This document shows, piece after piece, positions 2-23,710 of a stretch of DNA of 24,000 nt (position 1 is its first letter; each line of letters opens with the position of its first letter). Under the pieces are notes generated by a model. It was given only the letters and a program-made list of their open reading frames with translations. It did not search any database and was not told where the DNA came from. Source of the DNA: Chromobacterium fluminis (GTDB lineage: Bacteria; Pseudomonadota; Gammaproteobacteria; Burkholderiales; Chromobacteriaceae); the NCBI RefSeq assembly GCF_011602385.1, contig NZ_JAAOMA010000010.1, positions 10,003-34,002 of the forward strand. The letters are read 5' to 3'. The position numbers and the translations under genes are program-made.

Positions 2-760
2 GCCAGAGAGCTACGCCATGCCATAGCGCAGGGCGAGCTGCGGCTATACCTGCAGCCCAAGGTCAGCCTGGCCGATGGCAAGATCTGCGGCGCCGAGGCC
101 TTGGTGCGCTGGCAGCATCCACAGCACGGCTTGTTGGCGCCCAGCGCCTTCATCGATATCGCGGAACGGTCCGGGCTAATCCACCCATTGACCGAGTGGG
201 TTGTGACGGCAACGCTGGATTTACTACAAGCTTGGCAGGGGCAGCAGCTCATGCTGCCCATCGCCGTCAACCTATCGGTGCGCAATCTGCAGGACGACAC
301 CTTGCCGGACAAGCTGCGACTTTGGCAGGAGCAGCGTTCGATTCGCACCGGTTTGTTAGAGCTGGAAATCACGGAAAGCTCCATGATGTTGGATCCGGAA
401 TTGGCGCTGGCCTTGCTGAATGAACTACGATGCGCTGGCTCCGCATTGTACGTGGATGATTTTGGCACAGGCTATTCATCGCTGAGCTATTTACAAAAAT
501 TACCGGTGGATTACATCAAGATTGATCAGTCTTTTGTAATGAATATGTCGCAGGACAAAGACTCCGCCATGATCGTGAAATCCACCATCGAACTTGTGCA
601 CCATCTGGGACGGCTGGTGGTGGCGGAGGGCGTTGAATCCGCTGCGGATTGGCAAAGCTTGCGAGAGATGGGATGTGATTATGCGCAGGGGTTTTTCATC
701 GCCTCGCCAATGCCGGCAGAGGAGTTTGCCGCCTGGACTAGCTCTTTCCGGGCGCCATAG
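2..760 (+). CDS. EAL-domain cyclic-di-GMP phosphodiesterase, C-terminal portion (5' end lies outside the window)
   Basis: The frame of ORF 101..760 stays open back to nt 2 (ARELRHAIAQGELRLYLQPKVSLADGKICGAEALVRW...). EAL-family blocks are present: EALVRW, ELEITES, DDFGTGYSSLSYL, KIDQSFV, AEGVES, QGFF. Confidence 0.85.
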   Translation, partial: ARELRHAIAQGELRLYLQPKVSLADGKICGAEALVRWQHPQHGLLAPSAFIDIAERSGLIHPLTEWVVTATLDLLQAWQGQQLMLPIAVNLSVRNLQDDTLPDKLRLWQEQRSIRTGLLELEITESSMMLDPELALALLNELRCAGSALYVDDFGTGYSSLSYLQKLPVDYIKIDQSFVMNMSQDKDSAMIVKSTIELVHHLGRLVVAEGVESAADWQSLREMGCDYAQGFFIASPMPAEEFAAWTSSFRAP

Positions 761-848
761 TGTCGGGAGGCTGAGGGTAGGCGTATTAAGGTAAAACGGA
801 AAGAGGGCCGAGGTCGCCGTGGTCATCAGAACACGGAGATTTTGGGGA

Positions 849-875
849 TAAAAAAGCCCGCGCGTGAGCGCGGGC
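849..875 (-). terminator. Rho-independent terminator downstream of groEL
   Basis: Perfect 8-bp GC stem GCCCGCGC-gtga-GCGCGGGC (856..875). On the minus strand it is followed by TTTTTTAT. It lies 30 nt after the groEL stop codon. Confidence 0.8.
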
Positions 876-904
876 AAATGATGGAAGAGGACCAGGTCTG
901 CGGA

Positions 905-2524
<1,620 letters not shown>

Positions 2525-2550
2525 TTAACTCCTGTGATGATTGTGGGGAA

Positions 2551-2868
2551 TCAGGCAGCCTTACGGCCGGATTGGGAGGCGTCTTCAACGACTCCGAAGA
2601 CGTCTTCTTCGCGTAGCACCAAGTACTCCTGATCGTTTAGCTTGACGGTCTGGCCGCCGTATTTGCCGAACAGAACCAGATCGCCCACCCGCACCTGCAT
2701 CGGCAACAGTGTGCCGTCTTGCAGGCGCTTGCCAGGGCCAACGGCGAGAACTTCGCCTTGCTCCGGTTTTTCAGCGGCGCTATCGGGGATGACGATGCCG
2801 GAAGCAGTCTGGCGGACCTTCTCGATCCGCTTGACGATAATCCGGTCGTGCAGAGGACGGATTTGCAT
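2551..2868 (-). CDS. groES: co-chaperonin GroES (Cpn10) with a short C-terminal extension
   Basis: 105-aa [49 protein letters not shown]..., a typical GroES. It lies 29 nt upstream of groEL on the same strand. CAGGAG RBS present. Confidence 0.95.
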
Positions 2869-2981
2869 ATCAATCTCCTGTGCGATTCAGATCATTGGAA
2901 ACAGTAGGTAAGACCGAGTGGCAGGCGCGAAAAGGCCCGCTCTTACCGGTCAAAGTCAGTCGGAAAGGCTGACGAAAGACG

Positions 2982-3010
2982 AAGTAAGGGCGGGCCAAAA
3001 ACTTTTCAAG
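2982..3010 (-). promoter_or_regulatory. candidate sigma-32 type heat-shock promoter for groES-groEL
   Basis: The minus strand reads CTCTTGAAAAGTTTTTGGCCCGCCCTTACTT. CTTGAA matches the sigma-32 -35 core. After a 14-nt spacer comes CCCTTACT, only a partial match to CCCCATNT. This would give a leader of about 110 nt. No CIRCE element was seen. Confidence 0.35.
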
Positions 3011-3034
3011 AGGTTTTTTGCAGAAAAAATGGAA

Positions 3035-3694
3035 CTACAAAATGATGCGCTCGACACGGCCAAAACGGTACTCCGTTCTGGTCGCCTTGCCGCCATGGCA
3101 GGCGCGCGGCCTAAGGGGGCAGGGTGGTTTGCGCAGGCCTTCCTCGCCCAGGGTGTCGTCTTCGGCCAGGTCGCGCCATAGTCCGCCGTGTACGGGGCGG
3201 AACTGCCAGGAAACATAGCCTCGGCGGGAGGCCAGCCGCATCAGGTCCGGGCCGTCGGGCGCTTCCGCCAAGACACTTTCCTGCCCAGCGATAGGGGGCA
3301 GATCGCCGAAAGCCTGGCGGCAGGCCAGCTCTTCCCCAGCGGCCGCGCCTATGGTGTTGCAGCCGCGCCGCTCGTCGCGCAGCAGGTTCCAGGCGCCCAG
3401 CTGCCAGGCCGCGTCCAGAATATCTTCTTCTATCAGGGAGAGCGCCCCCCATCTGCGCGTCAGTTGCAAGGCCGACGCCGGCACTTGCCGAAGCAAGGGC
3501 TCGCCATTTTGGCCGCGGCCGGGCTCAGGGCGGCGGAAACCATGCCAATGCAGCATCAACAGCAAGGGCGTATCGGGAAAGGGGACCGCGCTGAGACTGA
3601 CCGCGAATAGCGGCAGACGCATATGGCGGATTTGAGCGGACAAGGTATCGAACAACTCCACGGCAACACTCCATGACAATGGACGCGAAGACAT
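3035..3694 (-). CDS. hypothetical protein (219 aa), family not recognised
   Basis: Longest ORF in this interval, on the same strand as and 64 nt downstream of the preceding operon. No convincing RBS and no motif I can name. The C-terminal 40 aa look low-complexity. Overlapping ORFs in other frames look like GC-driven shadows. Confidence 0.5.
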   Translation of the reverse strand: MSSRPLSWSVAVELFDTLSAQIRHMRLPLFAVSLSAVPFPDTPLLLMLHWHGFRRPEPGRGQNGEPLLRQVPASALQLTRRWGALSLIEEDILDAAWQLGAWNLLRDERRGCNTIGAAAGEELACRQAFGDLPPIAGQESVLAEAPDGPDLMRLASRRGYVSWQFRPVHGGLWRDLAEDDTLGEEGLRKPPCPLRPRACHGGKATRTEYRFGRVERIIL

Positions 3695-3758
3695 GCATTA
3701 ACGATAAAAAGATTGCCGGCACGAGGCAAGCGTCAACCTTGTGAATAGGGCTGGGCGT

Positions 3759-3986
3759 TTATTTCCATCCTTGCCGCCATTGCTCGTCGTCGCGCAGAGC
3801 CTGCCACGGCACGGTTCGCTGGCGCCGGGTGTACACCGCCTCCAGCGTTACCGTTTCTACCGGGCCGTCGGGCGCGAGCCGTCCCAGCGCCACCACCAGG
3901 AAGTGTTTCTCCTTGTCGCGCGGCGCGGCGGCGGTCCACTTGCTCAGCAGCAATTTTTCCGGATTGAGCCGCCTAGTTGTCGTCAC
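3759..3986 (-). CDS. TIGR02450-type tryptophan-rich small protein
   Basis: 75 aa with a GTG start. The pattern NPEKLLLSKWTA..P.DKEKHFLV...W..L.D...WRQGWK matches my memory of the Trp-rich TIGR02450 family. Overlaps the blc stop by 14 nt. Confidence 0.75.
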   Translation of the reverse strand: MTTTRRLNPEKLLLSKWTAAAPRDKEKHFLVVALGRLAPDGPVETVTLEAVYTRRQRTVPWQALRDDEQWRQGWK

Positions 3987-4509
3987 GATCCTGACTCACC
4001 CAAATCAACTTCTCCGCGGGTATGTCCAACTTGGCCGCCACCGCCAACAGAGCGGACTTGGCCTCGGGGGCGGGCTGCTTGTCGCGCGACAGCAGCCACA
4101 AATAGTCCTTGTCCGGTCCCACCACCACCGCCCAGCGATAGCCGGGGTCCAGCGCCGCCACGTGGTAGCCGCCGTAGAACGGGCCAAAGAACGACACTTT
4201 CAGCGAGGCGACATCGGTGCGGCCGTTGAACCAGGCCTTGCCCACGGCTTCGCGCCAACTGGCGGCGGCGGTGTCAAAGCCGCGGTTGACCACGCGGATG
4301 CTGCCGTCGGCATTGCGACTGTAATCGGCGCTCACCGCCTGCAAGCCCCGTTCGAAGCGGTGGTCCAGGCGGGCGATTTCATACCATCGCCCCTGATAGC
4401 GTTCCAGCTGGAAGCCTTGCACTGGGATGACGTCCGGCGGCGGCAGGGTGTTGCAGCCGGTAAGCGGCAATAGGGCAATAGCCAACAGAACGAGGGGTAT
4501 TTTCAACAT
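3973..4509 (-). CDS. blc: outer-membrane lipoprotein Blc (bacterial lipocalin)
   Basis: I trimmed the track ORF (3973..4701) to the ATG at 4509, giving MLKIPLVLLAIALLPLTGC (lipobox LTGC). RYQGRWYEIARLDHRFERGL and SFFGPFYGGYHVAALD..Y.WAVV.GPDKDYLWLLSR are near-identical to E. coli Blc blocks. Confidence 0.92.
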   Translation of the reverse strand: MLKIPLVLLAIALLPLTGCNTLPPPDVIPVQGFQLERYQGRWYEIARLDHRFERGLQAVSADYSRNADGSIRVVNRGFDTAAASWREAVGKAWFNGRTDVASLKVSFFGPFYGGYHVAALDPGYRWAVVVGPDKDYLWLLSRDKQPAPEAKSALLAVAAKLDIPAEKLIWVSQDRDDN

Positions 4510-4516
4510 ATCGGGC

Positions 4517-6046
4517 TCACAGTGTGTCGAGATTGGCTTGCAGCGCCGCCGCGTGAGCGGCGATAGCGGCTTGTTCGGCATCCGGCAGCTTGTCCAGCTG
4601 GCGATAGACCAGGCTGAGTCGCGGATTGGCCGCCAGCCGCGCGCGGTGGCGCTGGAAAAAGTTCCAGTAGAGGGCATTGAAGGGACAGGCGTCCCGGCCA
4701 ATGCGCAGCTTGGGCTGGTAGCGGCAGCCGGCGCAGTAATCGCTCATGCGGCCGATATAAGCGGCGCTGCCGGCGTAGGGCTTGCTGCCGAGCAGCCCGC
4801 CGTCGGCGAACTGGCTCATGCCCAGAGTGTTGGGCAACTCCACCCATTCGAAGGCGTCGATGTAGACGCCCAAATACCATTCATGCAGCGCCTGCGGCGA
4901 CAGCCCGGCGATCAGTCCGAAATTTCCGATCACCATTAGCCGCTGGATGTGGTGGGCGTAGGCGTCTTCCAGCGATTGGCCGATGGCGTGCGCAAGACAC
5001 CGCATGCCCGTTTCGCCATCCCAGAACCAGCGCGGCAGCGGCAGATCGTGCGACAGGGCGTTATTGTCCCGGTAGCTGGGCATCTTGGCCCAATAGACGC
5101 CTCGCACATATTCGCGCCAGCCCAGTATCTGCCGCACAAAGCCCTCTACCGCGGCCAGTGGCGCGCGGCCTGCGAGCCAGGCGGCGATGGCGGCGTCCAC
5201 CACCTCGCGCGGATTGAGCATTTTCACATTGAGGGCGAAGGAAAGCTGGGAATGAAACAAGCGCCGTGCATGCCGGCTCATCGCGTCCTGATAAGCGCCA
5301 AAGTGCGGCAGAGCCCGCTCGATAAAGTCGCTCAGCAGGGCCTGCGCCTCGGCGCGCTTGAGCGGCCAGCGCAGCGCTTCGGCCTGAGGCTGACCGAAGC
5401 TGCTCACGCCGGCCTCGTTTATGGATTGCCACAGCTTGCGGTGGTCATGCTCAGGGCGAGGGTCATGCGGTTCCGGCGGGCCGCCGGACCAGCGCTGACG
5501 GTTCTCGGCATCGAAATTCCAGCGACCGCCGGCGGGTTCGCCGTTTTCGCCAATCAAAATGCCGTGCTGGCGCCGCAGGTGACGATATAGGGTCTCCTGC
5601 CGCCATTGCCGCCGCGCGCCGAAAAACGCGGCGGCGTCGCCGCGAGCGGTGTAGAAATGCTCGCTGTCCGCCATGTGGCATGGAATGGATAAATCCGCGC
5701 CCCAGTTGGCGAGTTGATGATCCAGCCGCCACTCGTCCGGAGCCTGGTATTCCACCCTCGTCGCGCCGTAGTGGCGAATCAGCGCATCCAAATTGCCGAT
5801 TAACGATTGGCGGTTGCTTCCGTCGTCGATGGCGATGTAGCGCACTCGATGCCCCAAGGTCTTCAGCTGGCGGGCAAAATCACGCATCGCGGCGAAGATG
5901 GCCAGGATTTTCTGCGCGTGGTGGCGTACGTAATCCGTTTCCTGGCGGATTTCCATCATCACATGCACCACCTTGGGGTCGGGGGCGGTGAACCAGCTAT
6001 GATTGGGGTTGAGCTGGTCGCCCAGAATCAGCCGCAAGAGGGTCAT
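4517..6046 (-). CDS. cryptochrome/photolyase-family protein of the FeS-BCP / CryPro type (PhrB/CryB-like, probable (6-4) photolyase)
   Basis: Start trimmed to the ATG at 6046 (MTLLRLILGDQLNPNHSWF, the typical N-terminus of COG3046 proteins). It overlaps the upstream stop as ATGA. Four Cys are arranged as in the [4Fe-4S] site of PhrB: ...MRCLAH... and DYCAGCRYQPKLRIGRDACPFN (C-x2-C-x12-C). Confidence 0.88.
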   Translation of the reverse strand: MTLLRLILGDQLNPNHSWFTAPDPKVVHVMMEIRQETDYVRHHAQKILAIFAAMRDFARQLKTLGHRVRYIAIDDGSNRQSLIGNLDALIRHYGATRVEYQAPDEWRLDHQLANWGADLSIPCHMADSEHFYTARGDAAAFFGARRQWRQETLYRHLRRQHGILIGENGEPAGGRWNFDAENRQRWSGGPPEPHDPRPEHDHRKLWQSINEAGVSSFGQPQAEALRWPLKRAEAQALLSDFIERALPHFGAYQDAMSRHARRLFHSQLSFALNVKMLNPREVVDAAIAAWLAGRAPLAAVEGFVRQILGWREYVRGVYWAKMPSYRDNNALSHDLPLPRWFWDGETGMRCLAHAIGQSLEDAYAHHIQRLMVIGNFGLIAGLSPQALHEWYLGVYIDAFEWVELPNTLGMSQFADGGLLGSKPYAGSAAYIGRMSDYCAGCRYQPKLRIGRDACPFNALYWNFFQRHRARLAANPRLSLVYRQLDKLPDAEQAAIAAHAAALQANLDTL

Positions 6047-7943: not shown

Positions 7944-9146
7944 CTACGTCCTTTGCAGCAGAAACTGCGACACGCCGATGCGTCCCGCATCGAAACCCGC
8001 TTCGCAGTAGCACAGGTAAAGCCGCCACAGCCGAATGAAGGCCTCGTCGAAACCCTGGCCGCGAATGGCGTCCAGTTGGGTCTCGAAAGCCTCGCGCCAG
8101 CGGCGCAGCGTTTCCGCGTAGTCCGCGCCGAAATCCAGGCGCTTGCGGCTGGTCAGCCCGCTTTGATGCGCCGCGCGCTCAAAACGCTCGCGGCTGGGAA
8201 GCATGCCGCCGGGGAAGATAAAGGCCTGGATGAAATCGGTGCTGGCGCGGTAGGCCTCGAAACGCGATTCATCAATGGTGATGCTTTGCGCCAGCGCTTG
8301 GCCGCCCGGCTTCAGGCAGCGACGCAGGGTGTCGAAATAGCCGCGCCAGTAACGCTCGCCCACCGCCTCGAACATTTCGATCGACACGATGGCGTCGTAT
8401 TGGCCGCTCAGGTCGCGGTAGTCGCGGTGTTCCAGTGTGACCAGCGGCTCCTTGGCCAGGCGGCGGCGCGCGAAGCTCAGTTGCGCGTCCGAGATGGTGA
8501 TCCCGTGCACGGAGACGCCGAGACGGGCTGCGTGTTCGGCGAAGCCCCCCCAGCCGCAGCCGATTTCCAGCACCCGCATGCCGGGGCGTAGTTGCAGCTG
8601 CTCGCAGATGCGTTGGTACTTGCGCGCCTGCGCTTCGGCCAAGGGCTGGCTGTAGTCGCCGTCGAACCATGCGCTGGAGTAAGTCCAGCTGGGGTCCAGC
8701 CACAGCTTGTAAAAATCGTTGCCGATATCGTAATGGGCATGGATGTTGCGGCGGCTGCCGCGGCGGCTGTTGACGCGCAGGAGATGGCGCAGCCTGTGCC
8801 ACAAACGCGCGGCCCAACGGCCCAGCTCCCCCAATGGCAAGGCGTCTTCATTGCGCAGCATCAGTTGCAGCAGCCCGGTCAGGTCCGGGCAATCCAACCA
8901 GCCGTCGCGATAGGCCTCGGCAAAGCCGATGTCGCCGCCGGACAGGATGCGGGCGCAGGAGCGCCAGTCCCGTAGCGTCAATTCCGCGCTGACGTGCGTC
9001 TGGGCCGCGCCGAACCATAAGGTCTCGCCATCTGGCGTGACCACTTTAAGGCTGCCATGGCGCAATTGAGCCAGCATGGCGAGCAGCGCGCGCCCCGCCG
9101 CCGGAAACGTGGGGTGGGACAAGGAGATAGGTTGGCTCGCGCTCAT
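7944..9146 (-). CDS. cyclopropane-fatty-acyl-phospholipid synthase family SAM-dependent methyltransferase
   Basis: Trimmed to the ATG at 9146 (ATGA overlap with the DUF1365 stop). SAM-binding VLEIGCGWGGFA is present. NIHAHYDIGNDFYKLWLD and the C-terminal R.WRLYL.YCEAGF are characteristic of the CFA-synthase family. Confidence 0.9.
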   Translation of the reverse strand: MSASQPISLSHPTFPAAGRALLAMLAQLRHGSLKVVTPDGETLWFGAAQTHVSAELTLRDWRSCARILSGGDIGFAEAYRDGWLDCPDLTGLLQLMLRNEDALPLGELGRWAARLWHRLRHLLRVNSRRGSRRNIHAHYDIGNDFYKLWLDPSWTYSSAWFDGDYSQPLAEAQARKYQRICEQLQLRPGMRVLEIGCGWGGFAEHAARLGVSVHGITISDAQLSFARRRLAKEPLVTLEHRDYRDLSGQYDAIVSIEMFEAVGERYWRGYFDTLRRCLKPGGQALAQSITIDESRFEAYRASTDFIQAFIFPGGMLPSRERFERAAHQSGLTSRKRLDFGADYAETLRRWREAFETQLDAIRGQGFDEAFIRLWRLYLCYCEAGFDAGRIGVSQFLLQRT

Positions 9147-9919
9147 GGTTTCAGCTCCTGGCCACGGCTGAGGGCGGTGGCGGGGGGATGTGGCTTGCGG
9201 AAAAAGGGTACGCGTTTTAGCCAAAGCTTCAGCGCCTGCCAGTGAATGCGGGCGATGACGCCCAGGGTGAGCAGAGGCTGGCGCAGCAAGGCGGCTGCCG
9301 CTGTGGCCGAGCTTAAGGGGTGCAAACGGCCGGATATTGAGGTGTGAAGCAGAGCGCCGTTGGCATCGTGATAATCGATCCGCGTCAGCGAGCGGCCCGC
9401 TTGTTCCACGAAGCGGAATCGATAATGGCCTTCCACTTGGCAAAACGGAGAGACATGCAGCAGTTTGCGGCAGACCAACTGGCTGGAGGCGCTAATCGGC
9501 CCTCCGTCGGTTTGGCTGAGCAGATAGCCATGTCTTTCGCCAAAGGTGTTGTTGACCTCGGCCAGCACGGCGATCAACTGGCCAGAGGCGTCGTGGCAAT
9601 GCCAGAAACTGACCGGGTTGAACACATAGCCGAACACGCGCGGAAAGGTTTGCAGCCAGACCTCGCCGTCGGCGGGCAGGCCGGCCTCGGCCAGCCGCGC
9701 GCGTATCCACGGCAAGAGCGGCGAGCCGTCGCGCGGGCCGTAGTCGCGTGTGCGCAGCGACAGCGGCCGGCGGCAGTCCACGCCAAACCATGGCCCGTGC
9801 ATGTTTTCCAGCGCGGACAGCTTGAGCCGCAAGCAAAACACCGGGTAGACGAAGCGATTGGCGGCCGGGCGTAAGCGATGGTGCATCACGTGTCCGGTCA
9901 GCAGATAGGCTGTGCTCAT
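9143..9919 (-). CDS. DUF1365 protein (UfaO-like position in the cluster)
   Basis: 258 aa: MSTAYLLTGHVMHHRLRPAANRFVYPVFCLRLKL... The pattern G.V.H.R..P..N.F.Y.VF matches DUF1365 as I remember it. ATGA overlaps at both ends. Confidence 0.8.
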   Translation of the reverse strand: MSTAYLLTGHVMHHRLRPAANRFVYPVFCLRLKLSALENMHGPWFGVDCRRPLSLRTRDYGPRDGSPLLPWIRARLAEAGLPADGEVWLQTFPRVFGYVFNPVSFWHCHDASGQLIAVLAEVNNTFGERHGYLLSQTDGGPISASSQLVCRKLLHVSPFCQVEGHYRFRFVEQAGRSLTRIDYHDANGALLHTSISGRLHPLSSATAAAALLRQPLLTLGVIARIHWQALKLWLKRVPFFRKPHPPATALSRGQELKP

Positions 9920-20154: not shown

Positions 20155-20730
20155 ATGGCTGCGCGCGCAATCGTCCGGGAGGGCGATACCACTTCACATG
20201 GCGGCACCGTGCTGGAGTCATTCCCCAACTTCAATATCTATGGCAAGAACGCATCCGGCATCGGCCACCGTGGCTACTGTCCGCAGTGCAGGACAGAGTT
20301 CGTCATCGTGGCCGGGGCGCAAAACGTCATCTTCATGGGCAAGAATGTGGCGGTGGAAGGGATGCTCACTTCCTGCGGCGCAGTCCTGATTGCCTCCCAG
20401 TCTCAAGCCACGGTAGATACCGACCCTGGCGCAGCCAAGAGGGTGCCCGGGCCGCTGAGCGCGATGATAGCGGCGGGGGCGCCCTTGCCGGCGGTTGGCC
20501 AGCATTGGATTGGTTTCTCGCTTCCCGCAGAGGAAAATTATGCAGACTTGGTTTGTTTGGTTAACTTCAGTGATGGTAGCTTAAAAGAGGTTAAGTTTGG
20601 TCAAGATGGCTGTGTCAGGATTGATGCTATTGCTGAGATCACCGGGGTTAAAGTCGAATTGAAAAATGATATCGATGTGGATAGTAGCGAGAGCATGACT
20701 CGCACCCTTGCCAATTTGATTGGAGTTTAA
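20155..20730 (+). CDS. PAAR-domain protein (T6SS spike-tip type) with a ~75-aa C-terminal extension domain
   Basis: I prefer the ATG at 20155 (AGGA 5 nt upstream). MAARAIVREGDTTSHGGTVL...GIGHRGYCPQC...VIFMGKNVAVEGMLTSCGAVLIAS shows the GD.T.HGG opening, His/Cys metal-site residues and the closing CGA.LI typical of PAAR proteins. Then come a Pro/Ala linker and a beta-rich tail (aa 116-191). The overlapping 229-aa ORF 19875..20564 is rejected. Confidence 0.85.
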   Translation: MAARAIVREGDTTSHGGTVLESFPNFNIYGKNASGIGHRGYCPQCRTEFVIVAGAQNVIFMGKNVAVEGMLTSCGAVLIASQSQATVDTDPGAAKRVPGPLSAMIAAGAPLPAVGQHWIGFSLPAEENYADLVCLVNFSDGSLKEVKFGQDGCVRIDAIAEITGVKVELKNDIDVDSSESMTRTLANLIGV

Positions 20731-20733
20731 CCA

Positions 20734-21579
20734 ATGACTGACGTGACTTATGGTCGAAGTAGAAGTGCAGGTACTTCAACGATTGGTGGGGTAAGTATCC
20801 CATCGCATAAAATAGAATACTTAGGGCAATATCAAGTCAATAGAAATCATGAACTCGAGTCGCCATTAAAGAGAAGCATTGCGGACATGAAAGGCGCAGC
20901 GGCACGCTTTGCGGCGGATGCTATTAATGATGCGAAAATAAGAGTTTCTTATGAGGGAAATATACAAAGGATGGCGCAAGCTGTTTTAGACGAGGTTCAT
21001 GCGGGCAGTATGACGGCCAAGGAAGGCATGGAGTTTGCTACCGATATGCGGAATAAGATTATGATGGAGCACCGAGCGGTCACTTCGGCACAAGGTGTTG
21101 CCGCAGCGGAAAAACATAAATTAAAAGGACGGACTATCAAGGAGTTATTGGATAAGACTGCTGGGAAAATATTTAATAAAGGTTTCGATAGTCTAACGTC
21201 TGTTGAACAAAATAAGGTTTACTATGCGATTATCGAATCTTCAGCACGACCAAGTGGCACAATAAATACAAGAGTGAAAGTAATAAATGTGATGGGGAAA
21301 GTGGGGTGGGTTGTGACGGCAACCTTGGCTACTTATGCGATTGCTAATGCAGGGGATAAAAAGAAAGAGATAGTGAGGCAAGGGGCTATTATTGGTGGAG
21401 GTATGGCGGGTGGCTATCTGGCAGGTATTCTTGTGACGCCAATATGTGGGCCGGGTGCGCCAATTTGTGCAATTGCTGTTGTCTTGGTAGGTAGTGTTAT
21501 TGGTGCGGGGGTGTCAGAGCACATAGTTGATAGTATTGATGAAGAAATGGAGGAGTTTGCAAAATGGAATATGCAATAA
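20734..21579 (+). CDS. putative PAAR-associated effector: helical domain plus C-terminal glycine-zipper hydrophobic hairpin (colicin-like pore-former candidate)
   Basis: GGAG RBS; the ATG is 3 nt after the PAAR stop. aa 217-260, GAIIGGGMAGGYLAGILVTPICGPGAPICAIAVVLVGSVIGAGV, form a 44-residue hydrophobic hairpin with a central Pro/Gly turn. An amphipathic helical region precedes it (KGRTIKELLDKTAGKIF, SLTSVEQNKVYYAII) and an acidic tail follows (IVDSIDEEMEEF). The CDS call is solid; the function is inferred. Confidence 0.6.
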   Translation: MTDVTYGRSRSAGTSTIGGVSIPSHKIEYLGQYQVNRNHELESPLKRSIADMKGAAARFAADAINDAKIRVSYEGNIQRMAQAVLDEVHAGSMTAKEGMEFATDMRNKIMMEHRAVTSAQGVAAAEKHKLKGRTIKELLDKTAGKIFNKGFDSLTSVEQNKVYYAIIESSARPSGTINTRVKVINVMGKVGWVVTATLATYAIANAGDKKKEIVRQGAIIGGGMAGGYLAGILVTPICGPGAPICAIAVVLVGSVIGAGVSEHIVDSIDEEMEEFAKWNMQ

Positions 21580-22028
21580 CTGCCTTCAGTTTGCTTAAGG
21601 ATGATAAGCCATCAAACGATGGGAATATTTATTACTTCCTATTGTTTGATGGAAATAAAACGGGAGTGAGGACGTATTGTGAATCGATTTTTGCGCAATA
21701 TCATCTAGTTAAAAGCAATAGATATTTAATAGTGTTGGAGAATAGCTATTGGGAGGGGGATGATTATGTTTTTTATCTGCTAGATGCCCGTTGTGAAGTG
21801 CTGGATTGTATGAATGTTATTTGGTTTGAGGGGGACCCTGGGCATATACAGCACTATCAGTTGAGTGATGATGAGTTTTGCTTTGAAAAGTATGAGAACA
21901 ATAAAAAGTATACGCTGAGGATTAGTGATGAGGGGGAGCTCCGTTACTCGGGGGCAGATTTCAAATATAGGGCATTGCTCGACTTCATTAAGCCGCGTAA
22001 ATTTCTGGCCCTGGCTGTGCAGGGGTAA
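21564..22028 (+). CDS. 154-aa soluble protein, paralog 1 (immunity or accessory candidate)
   Basis: The ATG lies inside the last 16 nt of the effector gene (GGAGGAG RBS 8 nt upstream). No signal peptide or TM segment. Clearly homologous to the next gene. Confidence 0.75.
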   Translation: MEYAITAFSLLKDDKPSNDGNIYYFLLFDGNKTGVRTYCESIFAQYHLVKSNRYLIVLENSYWEGDDYVFYLLDARCEVLDCMNVIWFEGDPGHIQHYQLSDDEFCFEKYENNKKYTLRISDEGELRYSGADFKYRALLDFIKPRKFLALAVQG

Positions 22029-22095
22029 TGCCTGCGCCCCTATTCATCTGCTGGGAATGGTAGAGTATGGCCTAGTGAGGGGGAGAGGGAGCTAG

Positions 22096-22560
22096 ATGGC
22101 AAATGCAATAAAAGAATTTGATGTGATAGAAAGCCCAAGAAAGCCAGGGTGTGTGATTGTTTACTTTGATCTTTTGCATAACGGCCAGAAAACAGGCGTC
22201 AAGGTAATGAGCGAGTCGGTTTTTGCTCAGTACTGGATGGAAGATTCTGAACGTTATTTTTTAGTATTTCAGAATGCTCCCTGGGAGGAAACTAATTATG
22301 AATTTTATCTTTTAACAAAAGATTTTCTGGTTTTGGATCGCGTGCATCTATTTTCGCCTGATGGCCGTGATGATGAATTGATTGATAGTTACGAGCTGAA
22401 GGATGGTGTCTTTTCCTTTAGAAAATACGAGAACGGTAATAGGTATAATGTGCTGATTGATAAGAAGGGAAAGATTCGATATGCCTTTAGTGATTTTAAG
22501 TATCGATTAATATCAGGGGCGCTAAAACCGGTCAAGTATCTGCAGTTAACCCCCTTGTGA
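22096..22560 (+). CDS. 154-aa soluble protein, paralog 2 (immunity or accessory candidate)
   Basis: GGGAG RBS. My hand alignment to 21564..22028 gives roughly 35-40% identity with two 1-aa indels (shared blocks GxKTGV, ESxFAQY, RYxxV, YxFYLL, VLD, FxKYEN, RYxxxDFKYR). Confidence 0.75.
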   Translation: MANAIKEFDVIESPRKPGCVIVYFDLLHNGQKTGVKVMSESVFAQYWMEDSERYFLVFQNAPWEETNYEFYLLTKDFLVLDRVHLFSPDGRDDELIDSYELKDGVFSFRKYENGNRYNVLIDKKGKIRYAFSDFKYRLISGALKPVKYLQLTPL

Positions 22561-22603
22561 ATTATCGGAAGGGGAGTATTTTTGGTTGTGCCAGGGAGGT
22601 GGT

Positions 22604-22975
22604 ATGGGGTTTTTGTCTCGATTGTTTAAGTGGAAGTCAAGACGAGCCGTGGAGAAGGTTGTGTTTGATGAGAGTAAAATTATCCATAGCCCATTGAAGG
22701 GTGAGGATATTGAGTTCCATTGGGCCGATCTGAGCGAGGTAAGTATCGAAACCACGGATCAAGGGCCGTTTGTAGATGACGTGTTTTGGGTGCTTGCTGG
22801 AGGTGGTCGGTTTTGTCGCATTTCAAGCAATGCGGAAGGCATGGAGGAACTCTTGGAGAAATTGGGTGAGTTACCTGAGTTTGATCACCAGATGGCTATC
22901 GTTGCGATGAGCGTAGCAACAAACGCAAGGTTTGAATGTTGGAAAAAGCAGGGATTGGTTCCTGTTGAAGCGTAA
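22604..22975 (+). CDS. hypothetical 123-aa protein
   Basis: I prefer the ATG at 22604 (GGGAGG 4 nt upstream) over the track TTG at 22586. MGFLSRLFKWKSRR... No TM segment or signal peptide. Low GC like the rest of the cassette. Confidence 0.65.
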   Translation: MGFLSRLFKWKSRRAVEKVVFDESKIIHSPLKGEDIEFHWADLSEVSIETTDQGPFVDDVFWVLAGGGRFCRISSNAEGMEELLEKLGELPEFDHQMAIVAMSVATNARFECWKKQGLVPVEA

Positions 22976-23047
22976 AGTGCTTAGTTCTGAAACCTATGCA
23001 GGCTAAGTGGCGCTAGAACGGCTTGTTTCTGCTGACCTTGTAATGAT

Positions 23048-23710
23048 ATGCGCATGAATCATTTCGCGGTTTTACTGTTTCTGCCAACATTGGCCTTGGC
23101 TGCTGAGGTGTTTAATGGTTATGAGACCTATTATAGCCGCTTGCCAAATCGCTTATTCCCGTCTCCTAGTGTCGAGCTAGAGCCTTTCAGCCTGGAGGGG
23201 GAACCGGAGGTCCGATATGTTTGGCAGGGCATGGCAGCGGGTCGCCATCATAAGGTAGAGCTGAAAGAGGGCAAGATCATCCTGGATGGGCGGACATGGT
23301 TGGCCAAGTCGATCAGAGCCTTTCCCGGCGAGGTGGTTAATGCAGGCGATCTGGGGAGAGAGGCCGTAGCCTATTTCGCCACCGGTTGGGCATGTGTGGA
23401 AAATACCCCAGCATCGGCCTCGGGTACGGCGGCGAGGCACAAGTCGGTCTACCTGTTGCGCTTGGGCAGATCCAAGCCTCAAGGATGGAAGCTACCCAGC
23501 CTGTTTGCATCCTGTCAGGGCCTTAGGTTTTTGAACGGCCAAGTACGGTTCGACAAGCTTGAGTATCGCTATCGGAGTGGCAAGGATGAGCCGGCTGGGG
23601 TGGTACTCCATGAGTACGCGATTAAGTCCGGCCGATTTGTGCCCTTGGCGGGCAAGCGTTTCGCCTTCTTTGTAGAGGAGGGGAATGTGTATAGATTTTT
23701 GCTTGATTGA
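23048..23710 (+). CDS. hypothetical periplasmic/secreted 220-aa protein
   Basis: Signal peptide MRMNHFAVLLFLPTLALA/AEV (alternative ATG at 23054). Intermediate GC (about 55% in 23221..23280). No recognisable family. Confidence 0.7.
   Translation: MRMNHFAVLLFLPTLALAAEVFNGYETYYSRLPNRLFPSPSVELEPFSLEGEPEVRYVWQGMAAGRHHKVELKEGKIILDGRTWLAKSIRAFPGEVVNAGDLGREAVAYFATGWACVENTPASASGTAARHKSVYLLRLGRSKPQGWKLPSLFASCQGLRFLNGQVRFDKLEYRYRSGKDEPAGVVLHEYAIKSGRFVPLAGKRFAFFVEEGNVYRFLLD

Follow-up and report, generated by a model that had tools for sequence, protein, structure and literature searches.

Two soluble paralogs downstream of a PAAR-linked hydrophobic effector in Chromobacterium fluminis, a probable pair of cognate and orphan immunity proteins

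Loci in which a PAAR-borne cargo effector is followed by its immunity gene and by orphan immunity genes are well known. In the auxiliary clusters of Vibrio cholerae, arrays of orphan immunity genes arose from sequential effector displacement (Kirchberger et al. 2017, PMC5361080), and orphan immunity genes in the Rhs loci of Serratia are a related case (PMC10539506). Here we analyse a stretch of 24,000 nucleotides from Chromobacterium fluminis (contig NZ_JAAOMA010000010.1, positions 10,003 to 34,002; hereafter the window), in which a PAAR gene and the gene of a putative type VI secretion system (T6SS) effector are followed by two tandem genes for soluble 154-residue proteins, termed copy A and copy B. 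Judged from sequence comparisons, copy A is probably the cognate immunity protein of this effector, and copy B is probably an orphan immunity protein.

The window resembles the V. cholerae arrays in combining an effector and a cognate immunity gene with a variable number of diverged paralogs, whose types are shuffled among strains, and in that the orphans carry remnants of the 3' ends of displaced effectors. However, the protein family, the effector family and the genus are different, and here a hydrophobic effector is accompanied by soluble immunity, with orphan protection proposed. A second comparison is provided by TipE (DUF5085), a soluble protein of 151 residues that binds and neutralises TelE, an LXG toxin of the type VIIb secretion system with a C-terminal glycine zipper (PMC10434224). 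The likeness lies in a soluble immunity protein of about 150 residues, free of transmembrane (TM) segments, set against a membrane-destabilising toxin with a C-terminal glycine zipper, and in the presence of a diverged paralog in the locus. In contrast to our locus, TelE and TipE belong to a type VII system of Gram-positive bacteria and TipE is encoded by the third gene downstream, without coupling; moreover, there is no sequence relation to DUF5085, and the fold of the 154-residue protein is predicted to be all-beta.

Among T6SS pore-formers, Ssp4 with Sip4 (PMC12669606) and TpeX with TpiX (bioRxiv 10.64898/2026.08.24.746647) combine integral-membrane immunity with action from the periplasmic side. 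Sip4 and TpiX are, like the 154-residue proteins, encoded beside a T6SS effector with predicted TM helices, but they are integral-membrane or periplasmic, whereas the 154-residue proteins have neither a TM helix nor a signal peptide. TsiV2, Tsi4 and Tmi are further membrane or periplasmic immunity proteins of T6SS pore-forming effectors. Chaperones of the Eag/DUF1795 group are encoded upstream of prePAAR effectors and bind their N-terminal TM domains. As with the present proteins, a small, soluble, beta-rich protein accompanies a T6SS effector with hydrophobic helices; unlike those chaperones, the 154-residue proteins are encoded downstream of an effector whose TM region is C-terminal and show no DUF1795 similarity, and orphan arrays are not known as a feature of chaperones. 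Set against these systems, what appears to be new is the immunity family with its fold, the combination of soluble immunity with a hydrophobic effector, and the use of three unrelated partner families for one toxin family.

Two soluble paralogs coupled to the effector

The module comprises the following features.

20140..20730, + strand: PAAR protein, an open reading frame (ORF) of 196 residues, possibly starting at Met6 (20155); PF05488 (PAAR_motif) matches residues 14-85 with E 9.5e-20
20734..21579, + strand: predicted cargo effector of 281 residues, in four regions
21550..21566, + strand: translational-coupling signal, with the Shine-Dalgarno (SD) sequence GGAGGAG at 21550-21556 and an ATG at 21564-21566, inside the effector codons for ...EEFAKW...
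21564..22028, + strand: copy A, 154 residues, soluble and predicted all-beta, proposed cognate immunity protein
22029..22095, + strand: spacer with the decayed relic of an effector 3' end, which runs into the first 16 nt of copy B
22096..22560, + strand: copy B, 154 residues, soluble, proposed orphan immunity protein against an effector variant not encoded by the strain

An earlier note on this DNA, made from its letters alone, took the two proteins for clear paralogs, roughly 35-40% identical, and BLASTP places the relationship far beyond chance (39% identity and 59% positives over 152 residues with one gap, E = 3e-35). The 16-nt overlap with the effector that it reported for the first paralog is confirmed by the ORF coordinates and the sequence, copy A starting at 21564 and the effector ending at 21579. 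The ATG of copy A is built from the Lys-Trp codons of the effector (AAA TGG) and its GGAGGAG from the Glu-Glu codons; copy B has a purine-rich SD of its own (GGGGGAGAGGGAG). Across Gamma- and Betaproteobacteria, 69 of 88 related loci share this 16-nt overlap, with any partner family: the partner start codon lies in the context of the invariant Trp codon of the effector (A/T-TGG) and the partner SD in the conserved Glu-Glu codons. A dual-coding constraint may explain the invariant ...EEF.KW tail of the effector.

Hydropathy, inspection of the N-termini and an AlphaFold2 (AF2) model agree with the earlier note that the paralogs lack a signal peptide, a lipobox and a TM helix. The maximum Kyte-Doolittle hydropathy over 19 residues (KD19) is 1.02 for copy A and 0.67 for copy B, compared with 2.34 for the effector C-terminus, and neither N-terminus contains a charged n-region, a hydrophobic h-region or a lipobox Cys. 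Residues 2-12 form strands of the folded domain in the model (predicted local distance difference test score, pLDDT, about 90), and the N-terminus is therefore not a cleavable signal. The several TM helices that characterise immunity proteins of the pore-forming colicin type and of T6SS pore-formers are missing from both copies, and the model is that of a globular beta protein. Copies A and B are thus both predicted to be cytoplasmic.

The family to which they belong is small. A word-indexed search of 5.8 billion proteins returned five clusters of it, and an exhaustive hidden Markov model (HMM) search of 1.84 billion representatives gave 17 matches, of which 14 are real (92-181 residues); matches in giant proteins of 3527, 4256 and 1625 residues were rejected as spurious, as all cover only about 30-45 profile positions and the first two are Ig/FN3/cadherin-repeat proteins. 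A further profile search added a few members, Undibacterium among them. Eighteen family members gave no match in Pfam even at E <= 1, DUF5085 included, and the family has no Pfam match to DUF1795, DUF4123 or DUF2169. Sequence and profile searches with copies A and B found nothing in Pfam, NCBIfam, PHROGs, PADLOC or the PDB, and matched no housekeeping, defence or chaperone family; the possibility, raised by the earlier note, that sensitive profile searches would place the proteins in an unrelated housekeeping family was thereby pursued without any such family appearing. Copy A had no tblastn match in the GenBank phage collection. Kinship with DUF7079 (PF23296) was considered and rejected, as Pfam gives no match and alignment of the two family alignments with hhalign gives a probability of 0.1%.

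The AF2 model, built from an alignment of 18 sequences, has a pLDDT of 86.5 and a predicted template modelling score (pTM) of 0.83, and consists of twelve beta-strands and two short helices near the C-terminus. Foldseek against the PDB gave weak partial matches to neuraminidase and DET1/WD40 propellers (E >= 0.02, query TM-score (TMq) 0.38-0.47, ~130 columns), and against BFVD a best match that is likewise weak and partial (E 1.3e-3, TMq 0.40); no recognised immunity or chaperone fold and no significant structural match was found in either database. In the model, the twelve strands could represent about three blades of a beta-propeller.

Gene calling has obscured some members of this family. 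Two full-length copies are publicly called as 122-residue genes (9066-9536 in locus L002 and 7425-7895 in L091). Two metagenome contigs encode a member of 131 residues with no effector homolog nearby (L095, 4001-4396; L096, 1279-1674), preceded by a 314-residue protein without a family and by a predicted membrane protein of 122 residues; this member may, from its context, be a free-standing orphan immunity gene.

Partner families in the slot after the effector

In the fetched loci, the effector homolog was located and the next gene classified, which gave 88 loci, 81 of them with a downstream ORF. The slot is occupied by DUF7079 in 67 of these 81, and all 33 of the DUF7079 proteins tested match PF23296. 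A clear member of the 154-residue family follows the effector in each of the four Chromobacterium loci fetched at that stage, and a distant member (hmmsearch 3e-7 to 2e-15) does so in five loci from metagenome-assembled genomes (MAGs; L078, L082-L084 and L086), three from Acidobacteriota, one from Verrucomicrobiota and one unassigned, whose effectors are 33-36% identical to that of the window. Four Pseudomonas loci (L044, L061, L062 and L067) carry instead an unrelated protein of 128-153 residues with 2-3 TM segments (KD19 2.1-2.7), and six-frame HMM searches of these loci find no soluble partner. The slot of L066, from a Pseudomonas MAG, holds an unclassified hydrophobic ORF of 97 residues (KD19 2.13).

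The attachment of the 154-residue family to the effector holds in a wider sample. The family lies directly 3' of the effector in every sampled Chromobacterium locus that has it (the window, L001, L002, L007, L089, L090 and L091), and Undibacterium locus L093 encodes a PAAR protein, an effector (HMM E 7e-116) and a family member of 150 residues. Scanning IMG/VR contigs with the effector alignment gave 26 contigs, in which the effector is paired with DUF7079 in 18 loci and with the 154-residue family in 8. To the Chromobacterium, Undibacterium and MAG loci, IMG/VR adds seven with the family directly 3' of the effector (L114-L119 and L121). Across phyla, more than 20 loci keep the two genes adjacent. 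The search for the family in other PAAR loci that the earlier note advised places it beside effector homologs in Chromobacterium, Undibacterium, MAGs and IMG/VR contigs. One IMG/VR locus (L116, 1265-2396) has a distant effector followed by two tandem distant copies of the family, and partner arrays are therefore not restricted to Chromobacterium. On a further IMG/VR contig (L103), two complete effector-DUF7079 modules, 614-1860 and 3950-5112, lie ~3 kb apart.

DUF7079 shares with the 154-residue family the slot, the 16-nt overlap, a small and soluble product and the effector family (in Pseudomonas, Enterobacterales and Burkholderiales), but it is ~118 rather than ~154 residues long and has no detectable sequence similarity. 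On these positional grounds, DUF7079 presumably has the same function for the same toxin family. Literature searches returned no mention of DUF7079, nor of the effector motifs CGPGAP and MRNKIM. Within Chromobacterium itself, the effector of L092, 76% identical to a prophage-borne effector, is followed by DUF7079 instead of the 154-residue family, and the partner family has therefore been swapped between close toxin relatives.

Two of these Chromobacterium modules sit on apparent mobile elements. The L092 module (50-5971, in a C. fluminis assembly), which has DUF7079 and no overlap, lies between Tn3 transposase/resolvase and integrase genes and is preceded by a 242-residue protein with HTH_37 and a weak PAAR match. 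In C. violaceum assemblies (L007/L008, 4429-6286), a complete module of PAAR, 280-residue effector and 152-residue family member is inserted like a moron in a siphovirus-like prophage, between the genes of the tail assembly chaperone (Phage_TAC_18) and the tape measure protein. This element is probably the same as IMG/VR locus L097, and from its gene content the phage appears to carry a T6SS weapon plus its antidote.

Copy types and effector relics in Chromobacterium arrays

The number of 154-residue copies varies among the Chromobacterium arrays, with one copy in L007, two in the window and in L090, and four in L001, L089, L091 and L002 (one of them truncated in the last). Up to four copies, mutually 31-65% identical, thus share one effector gene, and pairwise identities sort them into discrete types. 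The first copy follows the effector. The effectors of L002 and L091 are identical, as are their first copies, effectors 80% identical go with first copies 58% identical, and effectors 70% identical with first copies 65% identical. Types found in first position in one locus recur as orphans in others: type c leads the array of L001 but is orphaned in L002, L089 and L091, type d leads those of L002 and L091 and is orphaned in L001, and type e leads that of L090 and is orphaned in L089. The closest relatives of copy A are the first copy of L089 (65% identity) and the fourth, orphan copy of L001 (71%). Copy B belongs to type b, since it shares 84-87% identity with the final copies in L089 and L090, and this type is never first in the sampled loci.

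The non-first copies carry traces of their past. At their 5' side lie decayed remnants, in the +1 frame, of the last 15-20 effector codons. Type-c orphans are preceded by the relic ...MAIDCLDERLGEFANWQLQ and a stop, to be compared with ...VVDSLDEELEEFANWQLQ and a stop in the intact L001 effector, and type b of L089 by the relic CTAGATGAAGAGTTAGAGG (LDEELE). Upstream of copy B the relic is more eroded (...GGEGARWQMQ and a stop, in the +1 frame), and the 22029..22095 spacer can be aligned both to intact effector 3' ends and to the type-b relic of L089 and L090, which is better preserved. It follows that every paralog once stood in the coupled position behind an effector that was later displaced. 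Copy type co-varies with the effector and orphans are kept without it, as expected of T6SS immunity genes, according to the identity matrices, the relics and the free-standing members of L095 and L096.

These observations bear on the two functions that the earlier note had offered for the paralogs, a new cytoplasmic immunity type or a downstream-encoded chaperone. The former gains support from the synteny, the variable arrays, the tracking of the effector by the first copy, the relics and the substitution of DUF7079 or a TM protein in the slot. As chaperones or holdases, the 154-residue proteins would be dedicated to shielding the C-terminal helices of the effector until it is loaded onto PAAR, and would give no protection from incoming toxin. 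With KD19 values of up to 2.34, the last ~90 residues of the effector are indeed strongly hydrophobic and would have to be shielded in the producing cell, the conserved 16-nt overlap means that the partner is made just after the hydrophobic C-terminus has emerged, the partners are soluble, and AlphaFold modelling has placed soluble TipE on the glycine-zipper region of TelE (PMC10434224). However, a chaperone is of no use without its effector, and diverged copies persist after effector displacement, with relics upstream; one effector gene may be accompanied by up to four diverged copies. Furthermore, the four Pseudomonas loci whose only partner is a membrane protein show that a soluble holdase is not obligatory for the effector family, and similarity to DUF1795, DUF4123 and DUF2169 is lacking. 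We therefore favour immunity, because partners are kept after effector loss and match the effector variants of other strains, and because a membrane protein fills the slot where no soluble partner is present; a purely chaperoning role is unlikely. A holdase side-role of the cognate copy for the hydrophobic C-terminus is compatible with immunity.

On the immunity reading, copy A would be made by translational coupling as the ribosome finishes the hydrophobic C-terminus of the effector, and would neutralise the toxin by binding it directly, one to one, in the cytoplasm. The contact would involve the variable soluble segments of the effector (about 130-180, 201-210 and 261-270) that flank the hydrophobic hairpin, and binding would block insertion of the toxin into the inner membrane, or its action there, from the cytoplasmic side. 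Copy B would be the leftover of an older effector-immunity module that lost its effector through displacement by recombination, kept for protection against that toxin variant when other strains fire it. The comparisons establish the paralogy, the solubility, the coupling, the synteny across phyla, the variable arrays, the match of copy type to effector and the effector 3' relics; from these we infer the binding, the neutralisation, the contact site, the compartment of action and the T6SS-dependent delivery.

Several points weigh against this proposal. Against a toxin that enters the membrane from the periplasm, protection by a cytoplasmic protein would be unexpected, and the T6SS pore-formers in the literature cited here have membrane immunity proteins (PMC12669606; bioRxiv 10.64898/2026.08.24.746647). 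The AF2 model of the effector, which is all-helical, is poor (pLDDT 57.9), and the interface is not readable from it. The sample of Chromobacterium arrays is small, at 7 loci, and the match between effector and first copy is imperfect within it, since the effectors of L089 and L090 are 75% identical and their first copies only 37%. A 2026 proteomics study reports that, in the C. violaceum PAAR operon CV_2124-2126, the middle protein (CV_2125) has no predicted domains and is secreted in a T6SS-dependent manner, and it describes the immunity protein as carrying a signal peptide (PMC13324451). The 154-residue proteins differ from that immunity protein in having none, and CV_2124-2126 could not be matched to the effector family.

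The module lies in an island of low guanine-cytosine (GC) content, with two further genes at its 3' side.

20500..23000, no strand: low-GC island bearing the module, GC 0.41-0.51 against ~0.60-0.65 in the flanking genome
22604..22975, + strand: soluble protein of 123 residues, unrelated to the paralogs; its true start is the ATG at 22604, within a longer ORF from 22586
23048..23710, + strand: protein of 220 residues with a signal-peptide-like N-terminus (MRMNHFAVLLFLPTLALAAEV...), at the flank of the island

The neighbours of the island are housekeeping genes of sugar utilisation, encoding a phosphotransferase system EIIBCA protein, a BglG-type antiterminator, a GH1 glucosidase and an OprB porin. 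The earlier note proposed testing each of four downstream genes for rescue from the effector; these genes do not form one family, as the third (123 residues) and fourth (220 residues) are unrelated to the paralogs and missing from several related loci. The 123-residue gene is kept 3' of the type b copies in L089 and L090, and its product matches neither Pfam, PADLOC nor the HMM of the 154-residue family. That it might be a truncated paralog was rejected for the window, and applies only to the miscalled "122-aa" genes of L002 and L091. The 220-residue protein has a KD19 of 1.75 at residue 6; homologs of 218-220 residues occur in L002, L089, L090 and L091, and the gene is missing 3' of the arrays in L001, L007 and L093 and from the Pseudomonas loci. 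The 123-residue gene is part of the island, and the 220-residue gene is not obligately linked to the effector.

It could be argued that one of these two genes encodes the true immunity protein and that the 154-residue paralogs are passengers of the island. The secretion-signal-like N-terminus of the 220-residue protein would place it to meet a toxin inserting from the periplasm, an immunity protein with a signal peptide is expected for C. violaceum PAAR operons (PMC13324451), and homologs lie 3' of the arrays in L002, L089, L090 and L091. Yet both genes are missing from L001, from prophage-borne L007, from Undibacterium L093 and from all Pseudomonas, Enterovibrio and Xenorhabdus loci, where effector and partner remain; neither gene overlaps or abuts the effector, and the only invariably attached gene is that of the 154-residue family or DUF7079. 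We regard this alternative as very improbable.

A second GC dip (0.48-0.55) occurs at 12000-13300 of the window, between a TetR regulator gene and an OprB porin gene, with overlapping ORFs at 12444-13265 (- strand) and 12486-13232 (+ strand), both without a Pfam match. L001 (C. rhizoryzae CP066126) carries at 12666-16471 a CdiI_ImmP immunity-like gene and a CBASS-like pair of SMODS/AGS_C and SLATT_6 genes, and L091 carries nSTAND/SLFN-helicase genes at the same chromosomal site (8793-10849). The island is located in a defence and competition hotspot. In L090, a relic C-terminal piece of a 154-family protein (15-389, ...YELLVREGGWISYSLSGLKYRSCFDFIKPK, E 2e-8) lies beside an OprB porin gene, ~4.4 kb upstream of the PAAR gene (start 4425), which suggests past rearrangement of the island.

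The effector, its carrier and the site of action

The effector consists of a disordered N-terminus, a helical domain (about 44-170) with an invariant MRNKIMxExR..TS..G motif, a region of hydrophobic glycine-zipper helices (about 185-265) around a CGPGAPxC turn, and an acidic tail, ...D.ELEEF.KW. The hydrophobic region is made up of a helix at ~185-204 and a glycine-zipper hairpin at 217-260, where hydropathy reaches its KD19 maximum, with GxxxG motifs at 217-231 and 253-261. Conservation spans the full length (alignment A4). Homologs number 114 in the protein database (250-282 residues), in Chromobacterium, Pseudomonas, Enterovibrio, Citrobacter, Iodobacter and metagenomes, and a scan of one genome per species found a relative encoded at 142 places. 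The effector has no relative in Pfam, NCBIfam, PHROG, PADLOC or the PDB, and only three plasmid or chromid records matched it, with uninformative annotation. Foldseek with the model gave nothing better than E >= 1.4, and profile searches of the PDB and Pfam gave nothing consistent. The description of the effector as colicin-like is unsupported, since no test detected similarity to a colicin pore domain. The earlier note, which chose none of its three readings, also considered that the effector may be no pore-former; the effector shows no recognisable fold or family.

Among the seven Chromobacterium effectors, residues 131-160, 171-180, 201-210 and 261-270 are the most variable (mean pairwise identity 0.38-0.55, against 0.7-0.8 elsewhere), and these soluble stretches flanking the hydrophobic helices are candidate specificity determinants. 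The CGPGAPxC motif at the hairpin tip (residues 238-245, window 21445-21468) is near-invariant from Chromobacterium to Enterobacterales, with only P240 varying in the sampled alignment; the spacing of its cysteines makes a disulfide staple possible, which would matter only on the periplasmic side. On the public record, the effector is a product of 255 residues from an internal start, and its N-terminal 26 residues are conserved among the Chromobacterium homologs.

The PAAR protein has a C-terminal extension of ~110 residues, presumed to be the effector-recruitment domain, and a PAAR homolog lies directly 5' of the effector in 67 of the 88 related loci. In L067 (P. fluorescens PS691, 4-1362), the last ~75 residues of a VgrG match residues 121-194 of the PAAR protein (28% identity), and this VgrG gene is directly 5' of the effector homolog. 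The extension thus looks like a portable cargo-recruitment domain usable on either spike protein. Because PAAR is directly upstream in most loci and the extension is fused to VgrG in L067, the 281-residue protein is most plausibly a T6SS cargo effector that a modular extension of PAAR or VgrG recruits. L067 continues with the TM partner and then with a lipase-like gene of 681 residues having a GHRLGG motif.

The earlier note started from the premise that known immunity proteins to T6SS membrane toxins are membrane or periplasmic proteins, and this agrees with the studies of Ssp4 (PMC12669606) and TpeX (bioRxiv 10.64898/2026.08.24.746647). The topological mismatch it raised is justified for the T6SS, because the T6SS pore-formers of those studies have integral-membrane immunities and act from the periplasm. 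By analogy with described toxins, two explanations remain. The toxin may act on the membrane from the cytoplasmic side, or be intercepted there, for which TelE and TipE are the closest precedent, and the TM-protein partners of the four Pseudomonas loci favour a membrane site of action. Alternatively, the hydrophobic hairpin may be an entry device for a new cytoplasmic toxin domain, like the zipper of Tde1, a reading supported by the invariant polar motif in the helical domain.

The second explanation would keep the immunity function but make the helical domain a toxin acting in the cytoplasm, with the glycine-zipper hairpin only carrying it across the inner membrane; cytoplasmic immunity would therefore be expected and the topological mismatch would disappear. 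Polar residues of the helical domain are invariant among homologs of ~35-100% identity (D62, D66, R70, Y73, N76 and R79, and likewise R106, N107, K108, E112, R114, T117 and S118), a pattern that recalls an active site or a specific interface rather than the lining of a pore. The slot is taken by two soluble families that are unrelated, and the rule that the location of immunity reports the site of action (PMC12669606) would then point to the cytoplasm. A glycine zipper is also needed for entry of the T6SS DNase Tde1 into the target cytoplasm (PMC10240207); in Tde1, however, the zipper is N-terminal and short, compared with ~90 hydrophobic residues here. In addition, searches assigned the helical domain to no enzyme family or fold, its conservation is matched by that of the hydrophobic region, the CGPGAPxC turn and the acidic tail, and the subclade with a 2-3-TM protein in the slot fits a membrane site of action. 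A toxin acting in the cytoplasm is accordingly possible, although we consider it rather unlikely.

A tentative proposal, less likely than not, is that the toxin family inserts into the inner membrane, or acts there, from its cytoplasmic face, with the CGPGAPxC tip crossing to the periplasm, and that soluble cytoplasmic immunity was for this reason recruited independently at least twice (the 154-residue family and DUF7079) and a membrane protein once. If true, this would be the first T6SS membrane toxin with cytoplasmic immunity among the cases compared here, and a rare instance of one toxin family met by three unrelated immunity solutions.

In summary, if copies A and B are immunity proteins, they represent an undescribed immunity family, and DUF7079 would gain its first functional hypothesis by association, for a toxin family that ranges over Pseudomonas, Xenorhabdus, Providencia, Aeromonas, Burkholderia, Chromobacterium and uncultured phyla. 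The rule that the location of T6SS immunity tells where the toxin acts is put to the test by soluble immunity to a hydrophobic effector with a glycine zipper. Either the membrane is attacked from inside, or the hairpin brings in a new toxin domain that works in the cytoplasm, and both outcomes would be informative. The Chromobacterium arrays with their effector relics offer a clean second example, outside Vibrio, of array growth by effector displacement, and the module's occurrence among the tail genes of a prophage and on a Tn3-like element illustrates how such weapons spread.

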